DNA from: Candidatus Omnitrophota bacterium
GTDB taxonomy: Bacteria > Omnitrophota > Gorgyraeia > 2-01-FULL-45-10
DNA: 32,000 nt
Direction: 5' to 3'
NCBI GenBank assembly: GCA_023818895.1
Contig: JAMWCX010000004.1
Location: 21,947-53,946 of the forward strand
Below, one piece after another: positions 4,437 through 32,000 of the stretch. Under the pieces are notes generated by a model. The model did not search any database, was not told the DNA's origin, and saw only the letters and a program-made list of their open reading frames with translations. The translations under genes were made by a program, and so were the position numbers. The number at the start of each line of letters is the position of its first letter. Position 1 is the stretch's first letter.

Positions 4437-5917
4437 CTCTTTTGACTCAAAGTTCTCTTGACCGCGTCACGCCAGCCTTCGTATAATCTGTCAGCGTGGT
4501 TACGCGACATGGTGGGCTTAAATACCCTGTCAACGGCCCAGCATCTTTTTATCTCGGCCGAATCCTTCCAGTATTCTACCGCAAGGCCAGCAAGATATGC
4601 CGCCCCCAAAGAGGTGGTCTCCACAACTCTTGGTCGAACTACATCGATACCTAGTATATCAGCCTGGAACTGGCACAAGAAATTATTCACCGTGGCGCCG
4701 CCGTCTATCTTAAGGCTCTTTATTTTAAGGGCCGAATCCCTTTGCATCGCCTCAACGACATCTTTTGTTTGGTAGCACATAGCTTCCAGAGACGCGCGCA
4801 CAAGATGGCTTGCGCGAGTACCCCTGGTTATACCGTATATGGCGCCGCGCGCGTGAGAATCCCAATAAGGCGCCCCCAGCCCGACAAGCGCAGGAACAAA
4901 ATATACTCCGGCGTTATCTACGACTGATGAGGCCATGAGCTCTGATTGCGAGGCATGGCTTAGGATTTTAAGTCCATCTCGAAGCCATTGAATAGCAGCG
5001 CCCGCTATGAATATAGCACCCTCGAGGACATAGACTGGTTCACCGTGGGGGCCACACCCTATAGTAACGATAAGGCCGTGCCTGGAAACCGGCCTCTTAG
5101 CGCCAGCGTTCAACAGGATAAAGCAACCCGTTCCGTAAGTATTTTTCATCGTTCCCGGCTCAAAACACACCTGCCCGAACAACGCGGCCTGCTGGTCACC
5201 AGCCACACCGGATATCGGTATTCCCGCCGGCAGTCTGTCTATGCGAATGGTGTGTCCAAACATACCGGAAGATCTTTTTACATCCGGAAGCATCACGGCC
5301 GGTATTCCCAACTTTTCCAGTATAGCCGTATCCCAACATAATTTATCTATATTAAAGCACATGGTGCGCGAGGCGTTTGTATAATCGGTGGCGTGAACCT
5401 TGCCTCCGGTAAGCTTCCATAATATCCACGAATCCGTCGTACCAAAAAGTATCTCGCCTCGTCTTGCTCGACTCATCAGGCCGGGGACGTTTTTAAGTAT
5501 CCATTCTATCTTTGTCGCCGAAAAGTAGGGATCGACGGGAAGACCTGTTCTTTTCGTAAAAAACCTTCCCATGCCATTTTCTCTGAGATTATCGCATCGC
5601 TCGGCGGTCCTGCGGCATTGCCATACTACCGCGTTGTAAACGGGTTTTCCGGTACGCCTGTCCCACACAACGGTCGTCTCTCGCTGGTTGGTTATGCCAA
5701 TGGCGGCGATCGACAACGGCGAGACTTTGGCTAGGACGCGTTGTATTGAGATATTTACACTGCGCCAAATATCATGCGGGTCGTGCTCAACCCATCCTGG
5801 TTTAGGAAAATGCTGCGGAAACTCTTGATAGGCAGATGCCACCTTGCGGCCTTTCCTATCGTAGACTACGGCGCGGCTGCCGGTCGTGCCCTGGTCTATC
5901 GCTAATATGTATTTCAT
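4433..5917 (-). CDS. glpK: glycerol kinase
   Basis: 494 aa. It has the canonical N-terminus MKYILAIDQGTTGSRAVVYD and FGGY-family sugar kinase features along the full length (GITNQRETTVVWD, GCFILLN, IDGGA). Confidence 0.93.
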   Translation of the reverse strand: MKYILAIDQGTTGSRAVVYDRKGRKVASAYQEFPQHFPKPGWVEHDPHDIWRSVNISIQRVLAKVSPLSIAAIGITNQRETTVVWDRRTGKPVYNAVVWQCRRTAERCDNLRENGMGRFFTKRTGLPVDPYFSATKIEWILKNVPGLMSRARRGEILFGTTDSWILWKLTGGKVHATDYTNASRTMCFNIDKLCWDTAILEKLGIPAVMLPDVKRSSGMFGHTIRIDRLPAGIPISGVAGDQQAALFGQVCFEPGTMKNTYGTGCFILLNAGAKRPVSRHGLIVTIGCGPHGEPVYVLEGAIFIAGAAIQWLRDGLKILSHASQSELMASSVVDNAGVYFVPALVGLGAPYWDSHARGAIYGITRGTRASHLVRASLEAMCYQTKDVVEAMQRDSALKIKSLKIDGGATVNNFLCQFQADILGIDVVRPRVVETTSLGAAYLAGLAVEYWKDSAEIKRCWAVDRVFKPTMSRNHADRLYEGWRDAVKRTLSQKR

Positions 5918-5936
5918 GATAATAACCTTTTCGCGA

Positions 5937-6719
5937 TTATATTCTGCGCTCTATCCACCTCAATATCTCTTCAAAGACCGCCTGCCGGCCCATCTCCACT
6001 GAAAGCGAATGATACATTCCTGGAAACTTCACAAGCGCTTTATCATCAACTCGAAGCCTCCCGAACACACGGGCTGAAACCGCCTGATTGGCTATCTTAT
6101 CGTCGCCAGGCAGAAGAAAAAGGGTAGGAACTGTTATCTTCGGCGCCGCAGACCGGGCAGACGCCTGATAAATCATCAGCTCGAATAGAAGCCTGGCCGA
6201 TGCTGAGCGGTATTCAAGAGGGTCGCAATCCATTCTATTCCTATAACGAGAGTCACGCGTGCACATGGAAGAATCGAATGGCAGCTTTATCTGGTTAGCG
6301 GGGTTATAAAGAAGCGAAATCGCTATTTTCAGGTAATCCAGAACGTTAAGACGCACTCTGTTCGCGAAAGCTGGCGAAAGTAGTATAAGTCCGTCAAAAC
6401 AGCTGGGGTTTTTAGCAGCGAGTATGAAGGAAATTATGGCGCCCATGCTCTCGCCGATCAGGAATATTTTCTTTCCGGGAAGCTGCGTGGCCGCCAGCTC
6501 GCGTAGACGCATTACATCGCTGAAATATCTTCTGAAATTCCCCGTTTTCTCAAGCTCAATCGCATAAGATAAGACACCTTTTGTAAGAAAAAACTCCGCC
6601 AGCGCCTCCCACCTTCCACCGTGCGCCCCGAGGCCATGCACCAGTAAAAAAACCGCTCTCGGAGAGGAAGGCGCCCATCGCCTGTAGACAATATTTGGCG
6701 AGTCTTGCTTTTCGTTCAT
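5937..6719 (-). CDS. alpha/beta hydrolase (lysophospholipase / monoacylglycerol lipase-like)
   Basis: 260 aa. It has an HGLGAHGGRW oxyanion region, a GESMG nucleophile elbow and a C-terminal YH catalytic His region. It lies next to the glycerol genes. Confidence 0.7.
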   Translation of the reverse strand: MNEKQDSPNIVYRRWAPSSPRAVFLLVHGLGAHGGRWEALAEFFLTKGVLSYAIELEKTGNFRRYFSDVMRLRELAATQLPGKKIFLIGESMGAIISFILAAKNPSCFDGLILLSPAFANRVRLNVLDYLKIAISLLYNPANQIKLPFDSSMCTRDSRYRNRMDCDPLEYRSASARLLFELMIYQASARSAAPKITVPTLFLLPGDDKIANQAVSARVFGRLRVDDKALVKFPGMYHSLSVEMGRQAVFEEILRWIERRI

Positions 6720-25663: not shown

Positions 25664-25684
25664 TGGCGGAGAGATAGGGATTCG
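25664..25684. repeat. 21-bp copy of the tRNA-Ser 3' end (outer att-like direct repeat)
   Basis: Identical to 30525-30545, which spans from within the T-loop (CGAA) through the 3' T-stem strand, acceptor 3' strand, discriminator and encoded CCA. Confidence 0.9.
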
Positions 25685-25803
25685 GCGACTTCGCCTCGCA
25701 GAGCTCGGCTTGCGTCGCCAGCTCGGCCGCTGTCGCGCATAGCACTTTTCCTCACTATTCGCTCGGCGCGGCCTCGCTTCGAATCACCGTCTCACACTAA
25801 GCA

Positions 25804-26177
25804 AACTGGCGGTGTTCTTGCGACGAAATCAGAAACTTCTACCGCCAAAGTTTAATTGTTTATTAGGCTCGCGCTCATTGCTTGAGCCGAAAGCTTTTGT
25901 TTGCTCCCGAGCAGTGCGTGTTATAGCGCTCGGATACTTCCTAAAATAGAGGCTCGCTTTATGCCCCCTTTCCGCTAAGCGTGCCGTCCCCCAGAGGGAC
26001 GGCAGCGGAAAAGCGTAACCTCTCCCCCTAAAGAAACTCTAAATCAAAGAAATGCCCCTTCTCCTCAGGGAGAGGGAGAAAGAAGAAGACAAATTTTTTT
26101 CAAATAACAAACAACCTCAAGGGGCGGGCGTGCTCGCACCACGCCCGCCCCTATAAAATCTATCTGGCAAAATTTTG
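25804..26177 (+). repeat. core + Y arm (left, attL-like end)
   Basis: The reverse complement of 28483-28855 matches base for base, apart from one 1-nt indel near 25908. Confidence 0.95.
26121..26151 (-). terminator. intrinsic terminator of the R-M operon (inside Y)
   Basis: The hairpin is ggggcgggcgtg, a 7-nt loop, then cacgcccgcccc. On the minus strand it is followed by TTGAGGTTGTTTGTTATTTG and lies 37 nt after the endonuclease stop codon. Confidence 0.65.
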
Positions 26178-26187
26178 CCCAAAATAT

Positions 26188-26817
26188 TTAATTTTTTAAT
26201 GAAGCGATTTCTTGTTTGATCTCTTCAATTACTTCTGTATTATAAATTTTTTTCTTATCGCCTTCTTTCACAGAAATTACATAAAAAACTTTTCCGCCAT
26301 ATTTAGCAGTAAATTTCTTATGAGTCGCTTCTTGATTCTTTCTTTCGTTTATAATCTGAGTTATAAATGCATATCCTGCCGGTTTTATTTGTAGTCCAAT
26401 AAATTTATCTTTTATCTTAATAAAGAAATCTACATTAAATAACCTATCCCATTCATCTGGTGCTGGTTCAATTTTCACACCCAGAATATCTTGGAGTTGC
26501 TCATAGATTGTTTTCTTTTCTGTCATATAGCCGTCAAAAGTCCGGTTTATAACAAGGTTGACAACGTAATTTATACAATCTTCTTCTGTAATATCATCGA
26601 TCTCGGCTCGTAAAACCTCGGTTATTTTTACATAAAGCTTCTTGCCTATTTCAATAAGATGCTCTTTAGGATAAACTTTTTTAAAATAATAATCTTCCCA
26701 ATCTTTAACGGTTTTTGGTGAACATTTTCTAATTTCGTCGGAAACCGCGCCAACCATTCTTTTTTTCTGGAGACCCCAGCGATTTATTGCGCTATTTAAA
26801 ATCCATTCTTTAGGCAT
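26188..26817 (-). CDS. putative type II restriction endonuclease (PD-(D/E)xK-like)
   Basis: 209 aa, overlapping the methyltransferase stop by 8 bp. A candidate catalytic core is NVDFFIKIKDKFIGLQIKP (D...Q-x-K). It is reminiscent of the MjaI-type family, but this is from memory and unverified. Confidence 0.55.
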   Translation of the reverse strand: MPKEWILNSAINRWGLQKKRMVGAVSDEIRKCSPKTVKDWEDYYFKKVYPKEHLIEIGKKLYVKITEVLRAEIDDITEEDCINYVVNLVINRTFDGYMTEKKTIYEQLQDILGVKIEPAPDEWDRLFNVDFFIKIKDKFIGLQIKPAGYAFITQIINERKNQEATHKKFTAKYGGKVFYVISVKEGDKKKIYNTEVIEEIKQEIASLKN

Positions 26818-28162
26818 GGACTAATCCTTTCTCTTCCCAGACGCCCACCTTAGCTTGCATCGCTTCTTCTTCATATTTCATAAATCTATCTTTATATTGA
26901 AAATCTATTCTTCTATTACATTTTGCAAAACCATTCAATATTAATTTGGCATTCAGAAAAGTTTTATTAGTTAAATATACATAAGCTAAAAGATTTTTCT
27001 TATCGTCAAACTTTTCGCTATCGTATTTAAGAAATACCCTGTTCCCAGATATAAGGTTTTTTAGAAAGCAAATTGCCTTTTCTTTAAAAATAGGATTATC
27101 GGAAGGTATAACGCCCAAAAGTTTAACTTTTAAACCTGAGTCAAGAATTATTTCGTCTGGTTGCGGTATAGAAATTATTCTAAAAGTATCTTCTCTTTCT
27201 TGCTTGCCATTTAAATCTATAACGGTACCAAATTTGAATTTTTTGGGGTCGGCTAATCTTTCTATGTGGTTATTATTCTGTATCTCTGGAACTTTTTTCT
27301 CTTCTTTCTCTTTTTTGGGCATTTCTTTCTGATATATTATCTCATAGTCAAAATCTTCCTTATATAATGAATGGCCTTTTTGTATGCCGATTTTCTTTTT
27401 TATTACATCTAAAAAATCATTATTTATTTCATAGCCAATCGAATTTCTCCCCAAATCTAATGCCGCTTTTGAGGTTGTGCCGCTTCCTAAAAATGGGTCC
27501 AAGACCGTATCGCCATAAAAACTGAACATCTTTATTAAACGCCGGGGTAACTCTAGGGGGAACATAGCAATATGACCGTCTTGCTTTTCGCCAGGGAAGT
27601 TCCAATGGCCGTTAAAATACTCATTCCATTCTTCCTGTGTTAGTTTAGATTTTTCTTTTATCTCCTTAGAAACTTTTGGATCTTTGCCTAATTTCTTAAA
27701 AACTAAAATAAACTCATAGTCTATTTTAATTATCCCGCCTCTCGGATAAGGATAAGAACCCATAACCGTTGCGCCGCCAGTTGTTTTACATGTGGTAACT
27801 TTCTGCCAGATTATAGCACCCATATAATCAAAACCTATTGACTCGCAATATTTCGTAATTTCTGTACGTATAGGAATAACTTTATATCTCCCATAAATAA
27901 CTGCGCGCGCAAATTGATCTCCTATATTTACACACAATCTGCAACCAGGATGAAGTACTCTATAACATTCATACCAAACCTTATTTAGATTATTGATATA
28001 GTCTTGGTAGGAATCATTAAATCCTATTTGGTCTTTGGCTCCGTAATCCTTTAATTGCCAATACGGCGGCGACGTTATAACAAGATGCGCCGATGCATCT
28101 TTTATCTCATCCATATGCCGCGAGTCGCCAATAATTATTTTATGCCAGGTTTTTTCTTTCAT
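26810..28162 (-). CDS. beta-class N4-cytosine/N6-adenine DNA methyltransferase fused to a C-terminal SNase-like (thermonuclease/OB-fold) domain
   Basis: 450 aa. Motif IV SPPYW comes before motif I DPFLGSGTT, which is the beta-class order, and SPPY favours m4C. The C-terminal ~140 aa align by eye to staphylococcal nuclease (VKLLGVIPS vs RLLLVDTPE; NLLAYVYL vs RGLAYIYA; GFAK vs GLAK; GVWE vs NIWS). Confidence 0.8.
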   Translation of the reverse strand: MKEKTWHKIIIGDSRHMDEIKDASAHLVITSPPYWQLKDYGAKDQIGFNDSYQDYINNLNKVWYECYRVLHPGCRLCVNIGDQFARAVIYGRYKVIPIRTEITKYCESIGFDYMGAIIWQKVTTCKTTGGATVMGSYPYPRGGIIKIDYEFILVFKKLGKDPKVSKEIKEKSKLTQEEWNEYFNGHWNFPGEKQDGHIAMFPLELPRRLIKMFSFYGDTVLDPFLGSGTTSKAALDLGRNSIGYEINNDFLDVIKKKIGIQKGHSLYKEDFDYEIIYQKEMPKKEKEEKKVPEIQNNNHIERLADPKKFKFGTVIDLNGKQEREDTFRIISIPQPDEIILDSGLKVKLLGVIPSDNPIFKEKAICFLKNLISGNRVFLKYDSEKFDDKKNLLAYVYLTNKTFLNAKLILNGFAKCNRRIDFQYKDRFMKYEEEAMQAKVGVWEEKGLVHA

Positions 28163-28371
28163 TTCTTGTTATTTCTCTTACGCCCTGTTAACTCATCAAT
28201 GGTAATATTAAAAACATCTGCCAACTTAGAAAGAGTCTCAAAAGTAGGATTATTTGACTTACCTGACTCAATTTTTACCAATGTATTATAGGGAATGTCG
28301 GCTAATCTGGCGAGTTTATCTTGAGAGAGTTTTCTTTGTTTTCTTAATCTTCTTAGATTAACAGATAACAT
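28159..28371 (-). CDS. XRE-family HTH controller (C) protein of the R-M cassette
   Basis: 70 aa: LRKQRKLSQDKLARLADIPYNTLVKIESGKSNNPTFETLSKLADVF. It has an ATGA overlap with the methyltransferase start and is the first gene of the cassette. Confidence 0.75.
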   Translation of the reverse strand: MLSVNLRRLRKQRKLSQDKLARLADIPYNTLVKIESGKSNNPTFETLSKLADVFNITIDELTGRKRNNKK

Positions 28372-28482: not shown

Positions 28483-28983
28483 CAAAATTTTGCCAGATAG
28501 ATTTTATAGGGGCGGGCGTGGTGCGAGCACGCCCGCCCCTTGAGGTTGTTTGTTATTTGAAAAAAATTTGTCTTCTTCTTTCTCCCTCTCCCTGAGGAGA
28601 AGGGGCATTTCTTTGATTTAGAGTTTCTTTAGGGGGAGAGGTTACGCTTTTCCGCTGCCGTCCCTCTGGGGGACGGCACGCTTAGCGGAAAGGGGGCATA
28701 AAGCGAGCCTCTATTTTAGGAAGTATCCGAGCGCTATAACACGCATGCTCGGGAGCAAACAAAAGCTTTCGGCTCAAGCAATGAGCGCGAGCCTAATAAA
28801 CAATTAAACTTTGGCGGTAGAAGTTTCTGATTTCGTCGCAAGAACACCGCCAGTTGAGACGAATGTCCGTTTCGGCGACGAGAGAGAACGGATATTTATA
28901 AGAAATAGATAGAGTTACATCTTTTAGCGTTAGGTTCGAGCCGCAAATTTTCAAAAAATCTTTTTTGGGGCTTAAAATTTCCT
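28483..28983 (-). repeat. intact, inverted copy of X-core-Y (spare attP-like site with long flanks)
   Basis: 28483-28846 is the reverse complement of Y (25813-26177). 28847-28855 is the core ccgccagtt. 28856-28983 is the reverse complement of X (30394-30521) with 1 mismatch. Confidence 0.95.
28509..28539 (+). terminator. second copy of the GC hairpin, oriented to stop plus-strand transcription
   Basis: The hairpin is ggggcgggcgtg, a 7-nt loop, then cacgcccgcccc, followed by ttgaggttgtttgttatttg on the + strand. Confidence 0.55.
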
Positions 28984-29087: not shown

Positions 29088-30959
29088 ATGCCAAAATATT
29101 ACATATACGCCCGCAAGTCAACGGATGATGAGGATAGGCAAATTTTATCTATTGAATCGCAACTAAATGAACTAAGGGAATACGCTAAACGAGAAAATCT
29201 GTTTATAATGGAAGAGTTCATTGAAACAAAGACCGCTAAGAAACCCGGCAGACCTATCTTTGATTTTATGGTTAAACAGATTGAAGCGGGCGTAGCTGAC
29301 GGTATTTTGGCATGGCATACAGACAGGCTTGCCCGTAATTCTGTGGACGGTGGGAAGATAATCTACCTTGTAGATATCGGGAAAATTGCCGATCTACGCT
29401 TCCCCACCTTCCGCTTTGATACCTCTGCACAAGGCAAGTTTATGCTTTCTATCGCTTTCGGACAAAGTAAATACTATGTTGATAGTCTCTCTGAGAATAT
29501 CAAACGTGGGATGAGAGAAAAATTAAGGCGTGGTATCTGGCCTAATTGGGCACTGCTTGGTTATCTAAACAACTACAAGGAACACAATATCTACCCCGAT
29601 CCCGAAAAGGGGCCGTTTGTAAGGAAAATATTTGAGCTCTACGCAACCGGAAACTATACACTCCAATCTATGACCAATGAAATCCAGCACTGGGGCCTTG
29701 TGGGTAGCTTGGGCAAGCCTGTCTGTAAATCTCAACTGGCAAGGTTACTAAGGAATCCCATTTATTACGGTGTCTTTAGATTCAACGGTGAACTTTACGA
29801 GGCGAGCCACCCGCCGATTATCTCTAAGAAACTTTTTGATAGCGTCCAGGCTGTCTTAGATAACCGCCACAGAAATCATAAGCCAGCGGAAATAAAATAC
29901 GCTTTTACCGGATTAATGAGGTGTGAATACTGCGGTTGCGCTATTACCGCAGAGAAACAGAAAGGCCATATTTATTACCGCTGTACCAAGAAAAAAGGGC
30001 CGTGCGCCAGCAAAAAGTTTCTTAGAGAAGAGGCTTTGCTTTCCCAAGTAAACGAAGCGATCAAAAAAGTTTATATAGACGATTCAACAAAAGACAAAAT
30101 GATTAACCGCCTTGATGAACTATTCCAAGAGGAAAGCAAAGCCTCTTCTTCTCTATCTCAGGAAGTTAAAAACCGCATCATCGAATTTGATGCAAAACTT
30201 GAGCGACTCGTTGACATCTTCATTGACCGCCAGATTACTCAAGAGGAATACACCAAAAGGAAGGCAAAACTGCTCAACGATAAGAAGGATTTAGAAGGGA
30301 AACTCAAAGAGATAGAGAAAAGCGGCGGCGGGTGGCTCGAACCGGCAAAACAATTCGTAACTACTTGCAATAGAGCGAGTTCTGTCGCTTGGCAGGAAAT
30401 TTTAAGCCCCAAAAAAGATTTTTTGAAAATTTGCGGTTCGAACCTAACGCTAAAAGATGTAACTCTATCTATTTCTTATAAATATCCGTTCTCTCTCGTC
30501 GCCGAAACGGACATTCGTCTCAACTGGCGGAGAGATAGGGATTCGAACCCTAGGACCGCTTTTGGCAGTCATACGCTCTCCAGGCGTACCCGTTCAACCG
30601 CTCCGGCATCTCTCCGCTTAAAATTACAAAAATCTTCTAAAAGAACTTTTCCAGTACCGCTAAAAGCTTTTCATTCAAAACAAAATTTTTTGTCCGCCAG
30701 GAGGATATCATCTGCGACCGGTACTTCGGCCAGCACGCGGCAAAAGTCTCCATGCCGGTGGCGGGGCCGTTACGGTTCACCCACGGCGGGTTCTTCGTAT
30801 AACGAAATATCCCGTCGGGCTGGATGCCGTTCGCCACGCTCTTATAAGTCCAGTACGCCCAGCTCCAGCCAAAGCCCTCGAAAATACTCACAACATCCTC
30901 CACCCATCTCGTCTCACCGTAATGGCCGCCGCGCCAATGCACGCCAAATTCGCCTATGA
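29088..30959 (+). CDS. large serine recombinase (integrase). The element-encoded part ends at 30530; the remaining 142 codons are read-through across tRNA-Ser and antisense GH5
   Basis: AAGGAGG lies 7 nt before the ATG. The N-terminal resolvase domain has the catalytic Ser in YARKSTDDEDRQILSIESQ. This is followed by the recombinase domain (RGIWPNWALLGY, LRNPIYYGVF), a zinc ribbon (CEYCGCAI...YYRCTKKKGPC) and a long coiled coil. Confidence 0.9.
   Translation: MPKYYIYARKSTDDEDRQILSIESQLNELREYAKRENLFIMEEFIETKTAKKPGRPIFDFMVKQIEAGVADGILAWHTDRLARNSVDGGKIIYLVDIGKIADLRFPTFRFDTSAQGKFMLSIAFGQSKYYVDSLSENIKRGMREKLRRGIWPNWALLGYLNNYKEHNIYPDPEKGPFVRKIFELYATGNYTLQSMTNEIQHWGLVGSLGKPVCKSQLARLLRNPIYYGVFRFNGELYEASHPPIISKKLFDSVQAVLDNRHRNHKPAEIKYAFTGLMRCEYCGCAITAEKQKGHIYYRCTKKKGPCASKKFLREEALLSQVNEAIKKVYIDDSTKDKMINRLDELFQEESKASSSLSQEVKNRIIEFDAKLERLVDIFIDRQITQEEYTKRKAKLLNDKKDLEGKLKEIEKSGGGWLEPAKQFVTTCNRASSVAWQEILSPKKDFLKICGSNLTLKDVTLSISYKYPFSLVAETDIRLNWRRDRDSNPRTAFGSHTLSRRTRSTAPASLRLKLQKSSKRTFPVPLKAFHSKQNFLSARRISSATGTSASTRQKSPCRWRGRYGSPTAGSSYNEISRRAGCRSPRSYKSSTPSSSQSPRKYSQHPPPISSHRNGRRANARQIRL
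30394..30530 (+). repeat. X arm + core (right, attR-like end); it encodes the recombinase C-terminus
   Basis: The reverse complement of 28847-28983 matches with 1 mismatch (ggttcg vs ggctcg), which is synonymous in the recombinase frame. Confidence 0.95.
30525..30615 (-). tRNA. tRNA-Ser (anticodon GGA), class II with a long variable arm and encoded CCA
   Basis: Hand-folded sequence GGAGAGA-TG-CCG-GAGCGGTTGAA-CGG-G-TACGC-CTGGAGA-GCGTA-TGACTGCCAAAAGCGGTC-C-TAGGG-TTCGAAT-CCCTA-TCTCTCC-G-CCA. All stems pair, with one G-U pair in the variable arm. Confidence 0.9.
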
Positions 30960-31857
30960 ATATCGGCACGCCCAGCTTTTGCTGAAGCATGTGATATGGC
31001 CTGGCGATAAGCTCTATCCTACCTTTAGTCCACATTATATTATGCGCCCTGCCCGGATAAATTAAATCTTTCTCGAGTCCGAAGACGTAATCAATGGGCA
31101 GATACGCGTGGACGCTGAAGGCCGTGTTGCTGTCAGAAGGCTTGCCGAGAAATCCGAGGCGCTTGCCGAACATGTTGCCTTCTAGCAATATCATATGTTT
31201 TTGGTCGACGTCCCGTATCTCCCTCGTGACGCCCTCATACAGCTCTTTAAGCTGGTTCTCCCTTTCTATATCTATGACCGGTTCGTTAAGTACATCATAT
31301 GCCGCTATGTTACTCGCATCTTTATAATGCGTCGCGAGGAAATGCCATAGCCTGTAATAGCGGTCCCTATTGTATTCGTTATCGAAAAATTCGGGCTTTC
31401 CAACACAGTCGGAATGCCAATCCGGGTTCTGCGCGCCTGGCGCGGCGTGCATGTCAATTATGCAGTAGAGCTGGTGTTTCTCGCACCATCTGACGACTTT
31501 ATCTAGGCAAGAGAGCCCTTCCTCATTCAGGCTATAAGGTCTGTCCTCGAACTCAATTATCCTGTAATTGAAAGGCACCCGAATGCAATTGGCGCCCCAC
31601 TCCTTTATCGTTACGATATCATCTTCCCGGATAAAATTATCACGGAATGAACGCGTAAAGTCCTTGTGCGCCTCGGCTCCGAGGGCTTTTTCAAAATCAG
31701 CCCTGAACACTTTTTCTGGGATATGCCTGCCGCCAAGAATATAACCTTCCATGAGAAGCCATGAGCCTAGGTTAACACCGCGCAAAGTTACGGGCTTTCC
31801 CGCCTCATCGACAATCTTGGTTCCGGATGTTTTAAGGAATGGTAGTTTTTTTAGCAT
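30637..31857 (-). CDS. glycoside hydrolase family 5 (cellulase/beta-mannanase-like)
   Basis: 406 aa with RGVNLGSWL, the acid/base motif VLNEP and the nucleophile motif FIGEFG. No signal peptide is evident. Confidence 0.8.
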   Translation of the reverse strand: MLKKLPFLKTSGTKIVDEAGKPVTLRGVNLGSWLLMEGYILGGRHIPEKVFRADFEKALGAEAHKDFTRSFRDNFIREDDIVTIKEWGANCIRVPFNYRIIEFEDRPYSLNEEGLSCLDKVVRWCEKHQLYCIIDMHAAPGAQNPDWHSDCVGKPEFFDNEYNRDRYYRLWHFLATHYKDASNIAAYDVLNEPVIDIERENQLKELYEGVTREIRDVDQKHMILLEGNMFGKRLGFLGKPSDSNTAFSVHAYLPIDYVFGLEKDLIYPGRAHNIMWTKGRIELIARPYHMLQQKLGVPIFIGEFGVHWRGGHYGETRWVEDVVSIFEGFGWSWAYWTYKSVANGIQPDGIFRYTKNPPWVNRNGPATGMETFAACWPKYRSQMISSWRTKNFVLNEKLLAVLEKFF

Positions 31858-32000
31858 AGTTTATTTTAAAAACTGGCGGTACCTTTTGGACAAAATCCGA
31901 ACTTTTTTTGACGAAAATCCGGACATTGATTTTTAATTGTCGCCCTGCGGGCGACAATCCCGCCCAGCGTTTCCGCTCACCTGACGGCGGACAAAACAGA

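Follow-up and report, generated by a model that had tools for sequence, protein, structure and literature searches.

The internal site at 28824-28871 is probably the attP-type site of the large serine recombinase (LSR) encoded from 29088 onward, with strand exchange placed in a CGG trinucleotide and with the two kinds of half-site told apart by a distal box that is shifted by 5 bp. The window, by which is meant the whole 32,000-nt stretch of Candidatus Omnitrophota DNA that was analysed, carries a dyad of two 10-nt arms in this site. The dyad is a real motif within a serine-integrase recognition site, which belongs to a 4.7-kb mobile element at a tRNA-Ser gene, and its arms make up the inner zone only of half-sites approximately 24 nt long. 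Across relatives, the dyad itself is less telling than an outer box, which reproduces the T-loop sequence of the tRNA and lies five bases farther from the centre.

The element is inserted at the 3' end of tRNA-Ser(GGA) (30525-30615, minus strand) and is ordered as chromosomal flank, Y, cargo, Y', X, recombinase, X' and tRNA. Y and Y' form an inverted repeat of 374 nt (25804-26177 with 28483-28855), in which segments of 110 and 263 nt are perfectly complementary and are separated by a single non-matching position, 25914/28745. X and X' form a second inverted repeat of 137 nt (28847-28983 with 30394-30530; 99%). The two repeats overlap on a 9-nt core, AACTGGCGG (28847-28855), which is common to all three sites of the element and contains the tRNA-Ser 3' end, its last six bases being the complement of the 3'-terminal CCGCCA of tRNA-Ser(GGA). 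The internal site joins Y to X (Y' half 28824-28847, X half 28848-28871), and the outer sites join Y to the chromosomal flank and X to the tRNA body. The three sites exchange flanks around the core, as attL, attP and attR would. An inverted copy of the core (ACCGCCA) also lies approximately 30 nt inside the Y arm, at 25841-25848 and 28811-28818, and is retained in most Y arms of the common class.

The recombinase reading frame (29088-30959, plus strand) adjoins the internal site. Its product contains the Pfam domains PF00239 Resolvase (5e-21), PF07508 Recombinase (2e-15) and PF13408 Zn_ribbon_recom (3e-9), and its N-terminal serine-bearing motif aligned with the solved LSR catalytic domains 3g13 and TP901-1. 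A PDB sequence search with the LSR returned matches to the catalytic domain only. The conserved protein stops near 30521. Beyond it the reading frame, of 623 codons in all, crosses the core and the tRNA gene and then runs antisense through a GH5 cellulase gene. In the X'-core-Y configuration the frame would extend 17 codons into Y and then stop. The 3' end of the recombinase gene is duplicated, in truncated form, as the X copy of the internal site. Between the Y arms, a three-gene restriction-modification cassette was annotated with Pfam (26188-28371, minus strand), comprising an MjaI-type restriction enzyme, an N4/N6 methyltransferase and an HTH controller. The methyltransferase (26810-28162), which lies beside the other two, is fused to a staphylococcal-nuclease-like domain. 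None of the four genes of the element was a candidate for a directionality factor.

The first arm of the dyad (28832-28841, plus strand) occupies positions 16-7 of the Y' half-site, numbered outward from the centre, and the second (28854-28863, plus strand) occupies positions 7-16 of the X half-site, within the truncated copy of the recombinase 3' end. The arms are reverse-complementary at 9/10 positions, the sole mismatch being G against A at the seventh position, and the symmetry centre lies between C28847 and C28848; both the complementarity and the centre agree with the sequence-only reading from which this analysis started. When pairing around this centre was profiled out to 26 nt, it was limited to positions 7-9 and 11-16. 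The frequency of such a dyad was estimated from 6000 random 9-nt cores of the same genome, counting any 10-nt dyad of at least 9/10 matches that was centred within the core and lay within 26 nt. The chance was 0.97%, or 0.58% when the test was restricted to between-base centres. The dyad is moderately unlikely by chance, and alone it is not decisive. Elsewhere in the window each 10-mer occurs exactly once more, at the places already noted (25818-25827 and 30514-30523), and there it lies on the opposite strand. These single copies follow from the two long inverted repeats (374 and 137 nt) that meet at the site, and so they carry no separate evidence. Both arms are also coding, X as the recombinase C-terminus and Y as the 17-codon tail, and their conservation is therefore partly protein-level.

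The left outer site (25788-25835) consists of a chromosomal flank half (25788-25811) and a Y half (25812-25835), the latter holding the arm copy at 25818-25827 and a distal box at 25827-25835. The right outer site (30506-30553) consists of an X' half (30506-30529), with the arm copy at 30514-30523, and a tRNA half (30530-30553), with the T-loop box at 30540-30548. This composition bears out the earlier proposal that the outer sites are hybrids, of Y with the chromosomal flank and of X with the tRNA body. The same proposal had placed the whole arrangement in the pattern established for LSRs. That placement holds for the three-domain LSR gene beside the site, the hybrid outer sites and the enriched dyad register described below, and it fails for the internal site itself: an intact attP-type site retained, in inverted orientation, in an integrated element is non-canonical. 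A third site of the flank-Y type is present at 31855-31902, approximately 100 nt from the contig end (32000), with a distal box that agrees with the T-loop box in 7/9 positions. The assembly is without tRNA-Ser(CGA) and tRNA-Ser(TGA), and a third copy of the element therefore probably lies in the unassembled gap beyond this site.

A second element of the same order is present on another contig of the genome, at tRNA-Ser(GCT). Its cargo is different, its Y and X repeats measure 469 nt and 137 nt, respectively, and its recombinase is 87% identical to that of the window. Scans recovered the layout in 14 contigs of Omnitrophota metagenome-assembled genomes and in 72 metagenome contigs; a phylum-wide scan for the Y-arm pattern matched 6/401 sampled genomes and added no further analysed junctions. 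The 137-nt X repeat flanks the recombinase at nearly all related loci, and the identities of the repeat arms range from 89 to 100%. This recurrence and the range of arm identities exclude an assembler artefact as the source of the layout. The targets are the 3' ends of tRNA-Ser (GGA, CGA, TGA and GCT) and tRNA-Asp. An unoccupied target is present in one relative (G005), in which the flanking gene of the sister element lies directly beside an intact tRNA-Ser(GCT) and the element is missing. For the window's own locus no empty target was present in 40 relatives, among which synteny is not conserved, and the arrangement of the sister locus was absent from a genome of the same genus. The related sites are phylogenetically non-independent.

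Where both junctions of a related locus were readable, Y lay upstream and the tRNA downstream in 16 loci and Y lay on both sides in one. The upstream junction of the recombinase module was a Y arm in 23 loci and a tRNA in four, and these four show that the module occurs in both orientations. This could have arisen by site-specific inversion, by homologous exchange between the repeats or by the integration of a circle that has two sites, through either of them. The data contained no pair from one strain with both orientations.

For comparison of the arms, 102 junctions were registered on the core and 46 distinct internal sites were used for dyad counts. The Y arm is strongly conserved: the sister element and most relatives have exactly the window's version, and the variant Y classes retain positions 1, 3, 8, 12, 13, 18 and 21-23. 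The X arm is variable, with 0-9/10 dyad matches at positions 7-16 across the 46 internal sites, of which the window is the extreme, and only positions 11-13 and 7 are widely kept. At positions 13-11 the bases G-T-C stay the same while the codons shift from Cys-Pro to Arg-Leu, which points to a constraint on positions 11-13 of X at the level of the DNA. The mean dyad match was 4.76/10 at the centre equivalent to 28847/28848, compared with 1.4-3.2 at 14 other registers. No symmetry between X and Y was present in the distal zone of the family sites; the symmetry is confined to the inner zone. Loss of the arms in homologous elements had been named as an outcome that would count against the original proposal. 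The Y arm is conserved and the register is enriched, while the X arm ranges over the whole of 0-9/10 with a mean of 4.8. For the description of attP as two related half-sites, the observations are the 9/10 match in the inner zone of the window, the lower family mean in the same register and the absence of distal symmetry.

The distinction between half-site types was examined by comparing profiles of 33 distinct Y arms and 31 distinct tRNA arms, numbered from the GG centre. A single sharp peak was obtained at an offset of +5 (4.96; next best 1.82), approximately 4 standard deviations above the other offsets. The tRNA half-site carries the T-loop box at positions 11-19, and in the Y half-sites a similar box occupies positions 16-24. 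Whichever Y class is taken, no other placement of the box scores above 16-24. The box is the unique best at 16 in four Y classes (6-8/9) and in the third site of the window. The commonest Y class, which includes the window's own arm, scores only 5/9, tied with other positions, and the argument for the shift therefore rests on the family. In the att sites of the Listeria A118 (LI) integrase, the motif for the zinc-ribbon domain (ZD) lies at 16-24 in attP and at 11-19 in attB (Rutherford et al. 2013, PMC3783163). The shift between Y and tRNA is, on these alignments, the known attP/attB rule for serine integrases. The sequence-only reading had separated the half-site types by matching as against non-matching arms; what sets phage-type and bacterial-type half-sites apart is instead the distal box, shifted by 5 bp.

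The box rule fits one arm only per site. At 16-24 X lacks a clear distal box, the comparison of X with tRNA profiles gave no clear peak, and the chromosomal-flank arms, of which only three were usable, shared no motif and had no bacterial-type box at 11-19. In Y the box spans an Ile/Val-Arg-X stretch of the 17-codon tail, and coding could mimic the similarity. The Arg codon of the box is AGA or CGA, the genome's rarest, and never the commonest, AGG; base 23 is invariably A while the amino acid varies. Both features argue for constraint on the box at the DNA level.

Taken together, the following arrangement is proposed. Strand exchange would occur inside the tRNA-derived core, within CGG and most likely at the GG step between 28847 and 28848. 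The inner zone (positions 7-16) would seat the recombinase domain, if solved serine integrases are a guide, and positions 11-13 are the part of it kept across the family. The Y half-site would be of phage type, with its distal box at 16-24 resembling the T-loop box of the tRNA, and the 5-bp shift would set the placement of the zinc-ribbon domain in attP relative to attB. Because Y would thus supply the phage-type half and the tRNA the bacterial-type half, the sites at 25788-25835 and 30506-30553 would be attL-like and attR-like hybrids, respectively.

The exact step within the core was narrowed by comparing junctions. The sites of the window share a core of 9 nt, those of the sister element one of 6 nt. 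A flank-Y junction in locus L042 retains GCGG only, TATCGG is present in internal sites of L009 and L007 and at a junction of L068, and the base that follows GG varies with the partner. Over the 102 junctions the invariant core is CGG, and the 2-bp step is therefore CG or GG, provided that the variant sites are competent. The non-palindromic central GG proposed earlier, with the polarity that it confers, is favoured by the register of the inner zone; the invariant CGG also contains the palindromic CG, so that GG is the more probable step and CG a second candidate. Were the crossover at CG, one base to the left, the sites would have no intrinsic polarity, and this could explain both the inverted site copies and the two orientations of the module relative to the tRNA. 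Against this, with a CG centre the G-T-C conserved in X and Y would no longer align, being displaced by two positions, and the enriched register is d=0 and not d=2, the offset that corresponds to CG, at which the mean dyad match is 1.57. Natural serine-integrase sites use non-palindromic centres, and both orientations are explicable in other ways, by homologous recombination between the 137-nt repeats or by integration through either site copy. A crossover at CG is accordingly considered quite unlikely. A related question is whether the sites are genuine but the 9/10 dyad is incidental, a chance or coding by-product, with recognition depending on the core, the Y arm and the tRNA arm. A chance occurrence of about 1% is not extreme, both arms are coding, and the commonest X allele in relatives has only 3-6/10 dyad matches. 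The family profile of X against Y over the whole half-site also had no peak at the dyad centre (0.95; best 2.55, one base off). Set against these points, the inner-zone register is the only one enriched among the 46 sites, all 11 sites with at least 7/10 matches peak at this same centre, and positions 11-13 of X survive amino-acid changes. An incidental dyad is on balance unlikely.

Other explanations concern what the sites do. The three sites might be inversion sites, with the recombinase acting mainly as an invertase that flips the cargo module and its own gene in place and serves neither integration nor excision. Each module lies between inverted repeats, and these end at a site, the recombinase module is known in both orientations in nature, and the repeat arms are 93-100% identical within most elements. 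Such a role is not exclusive of an integrase role and is compatible with it. As the main function it is decidedly unlikely: insertions are known at six different tRNA genes, near-identical recombinase modules are paired with different cargo, an unoccupied target exists, flipping the segment bounded by the 374-nt repeats leaves what lies upstream of the cargo operon unchanged, and no isomer pair was found within a strain. A small serine invertase, of approximately 190 aa with a C-terminal HTH and sites of about 26 bp, was ruled out by the presence of the three-domain LSR. Highly improbable is a role of the dyad as a hairpin in RNA or DNA, acting as terminator or regulator, or as a tyrosine-integrase core tied to a 21-nt direct repeat of the tRNA end. 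The arms could form a 9-bp stem with a 12-nt loop, yet the fold was no better than those of shuffled sequences (z = -0.9 and -0.5), and an RNA hairpin role was rejected. Rfam searches of the spacer and Y region returned sub-threshold matches only, and those of the unusual Y-type arms in L007, L008 and L018 returned no RNA family. As for the 21-nt repeat, a copy of the tRNA end does lie 119 nt to the left of the left site (25664-25684; other copy 30525-30545). No tyrosine recombinase gene was present among the ORFs in or beside the element, however, and the 21-nt copy with its spacer is absent from the sister element and belongs to a separate repeat family beside other tRNA genes; tyrosine-type boundaries at this repeat were rejected.

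This separate family was recorded in its own right. At 25664-25803 the 21-nt copy of the tRNA-Ser 3' end is followed by a GC-rich spacer of 119 nt, and the family occurs just downstream of other tRNA genes. Further copies were located in the genome beside a tRNA-Tyr (C5:339528-339606) and beside a tRNA-Lys (C1:382175-382278), the latter with a copy of the end of that tRNA. Many relatives also have the family, which is possibly a miniature tRNA-targeting element.

The preferred reading, an attP-type site of an LSR, was compared with known systems. Serine integrases usually target protein-coding genes and tyrosine integrases tRNAs. Besides the LI integrase, Bxb1 and phiC31 were used as references for LSR att systems. 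Shared with these are a three-domain recombinase, two half-sites about a central step, few bases identical with the target, hybrid product sites, and a distal box at 16-24 in the phage-type arm and at 11-19 in the target arm. The system resembles LSR integrases in each feature of membership that could be examined, with the exception of full dyad symmetry and a mapped centre. It differs from them in several respects. The targets are tRNA 3' ends and the box is T-loop sequence, present in one arm per site only (Y and tRNA). The site lies inside the recombinase reading frame, and an inverted attP-type copy stays in the integrated element, within long repeats. No directionality factor is visible, and the sequence match to solved structures covers the catalytic domain only. 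The tRNA 3'-end target, the T-loop box, the in-frame site and the inverted spare site are departures from the usual LSR integrases, and literature searches for serine integrases that target tRNA T-loops or carry inverted attP copies found no precedent in the collection of papers searched.

Three further systems share single aspects of the arrangement. As in the yeast 2-micron plasmid (Flp/FRT), excision would give a circle with two inverted repeats of approximately 500 nt, each of which would hold a recombination site, and with two unique invertible segments between them. Here the enzyme is a serine and not a tyrosine recombinase, the element is integrative and tRNA-targeted, no replication function was identified in it, and the circle is a prediction. 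The Hin hix and Gin gix sites also have imperfect dyad half-sites about a 2-bp crossover, and inverted copies of them bound an invertible segment. They are served by invertases of about 190 aa, whereas the present enzyme is an LSR of 478+ aa that has a zinc ribbon and a coiled coil, the repeats extend over hundreds of bases, and the sites are hybrid with tRNA and flank. In the myxophage Mx8 IntP/attP system the site likewise lies in the 3' end of the integrase gene and integration alters the C-terminus, but IntP is a tyrosine integrase, of the other recombinase superfamily, and its site architecture is different.

A more far-reaching reading, held only tentatively and judged less probable than not by some distance, is that the internal inverted attP-type site is functional and that the whole is a modular, 2-micron-like serine-integrase element with a Y arm that mimics the T-loop. 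Excision would then give a circle with two inverted sites, either of which would be able to integrate, and the recombinase could invert or exchange cassettes of cargo bounded by Y. Evolution would have made the Y arm a mimic of the T-loop with a 5-bp shift, and a single zinc-ribbon specificity might thereby read both the tRNA and the element's own site. Serine integrases are prized tools for genome engineering, and the rule by which attP and attB are discriminated rests on few phage enzymes. A family from an uncultured phylum that appears to use the 5-bp rule on the T-loop and CCA end of tRNAs, a sequence that is universal, would offer a natural experiment on that rule and a source of candidate enzymes whose target motif is present in every genome. 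Whether a modular and invertible element can be driven by a serine integrase is a question that the retained internal site poses.

Several related loci depart from the common layout. In L060 (2802-5903) and L061 (1970-5068) an insertion of approximately 1.8 kb interrupts the recombinase gene after residue 80. In L045 (5772/7434) and L008 (26/1691) the recombinase module lies between Y-type arms of two classes with a tRNA at neither junction, and a simple one-element model fails to explain these loci. The inner Y repeat of the window (28505-28791) is 82% identical to L018 8726-9016 despite outer arms of different classes; the repeats are mosaic. In L068 a 69-nt segment of the common Y class precedes a nested Y arm that belongs to another class (1300-1330 / 5860-5957), and the distal partner of this arm carries the core variant TATCGG. 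This suggests that serial recombination events built mosaic arms.
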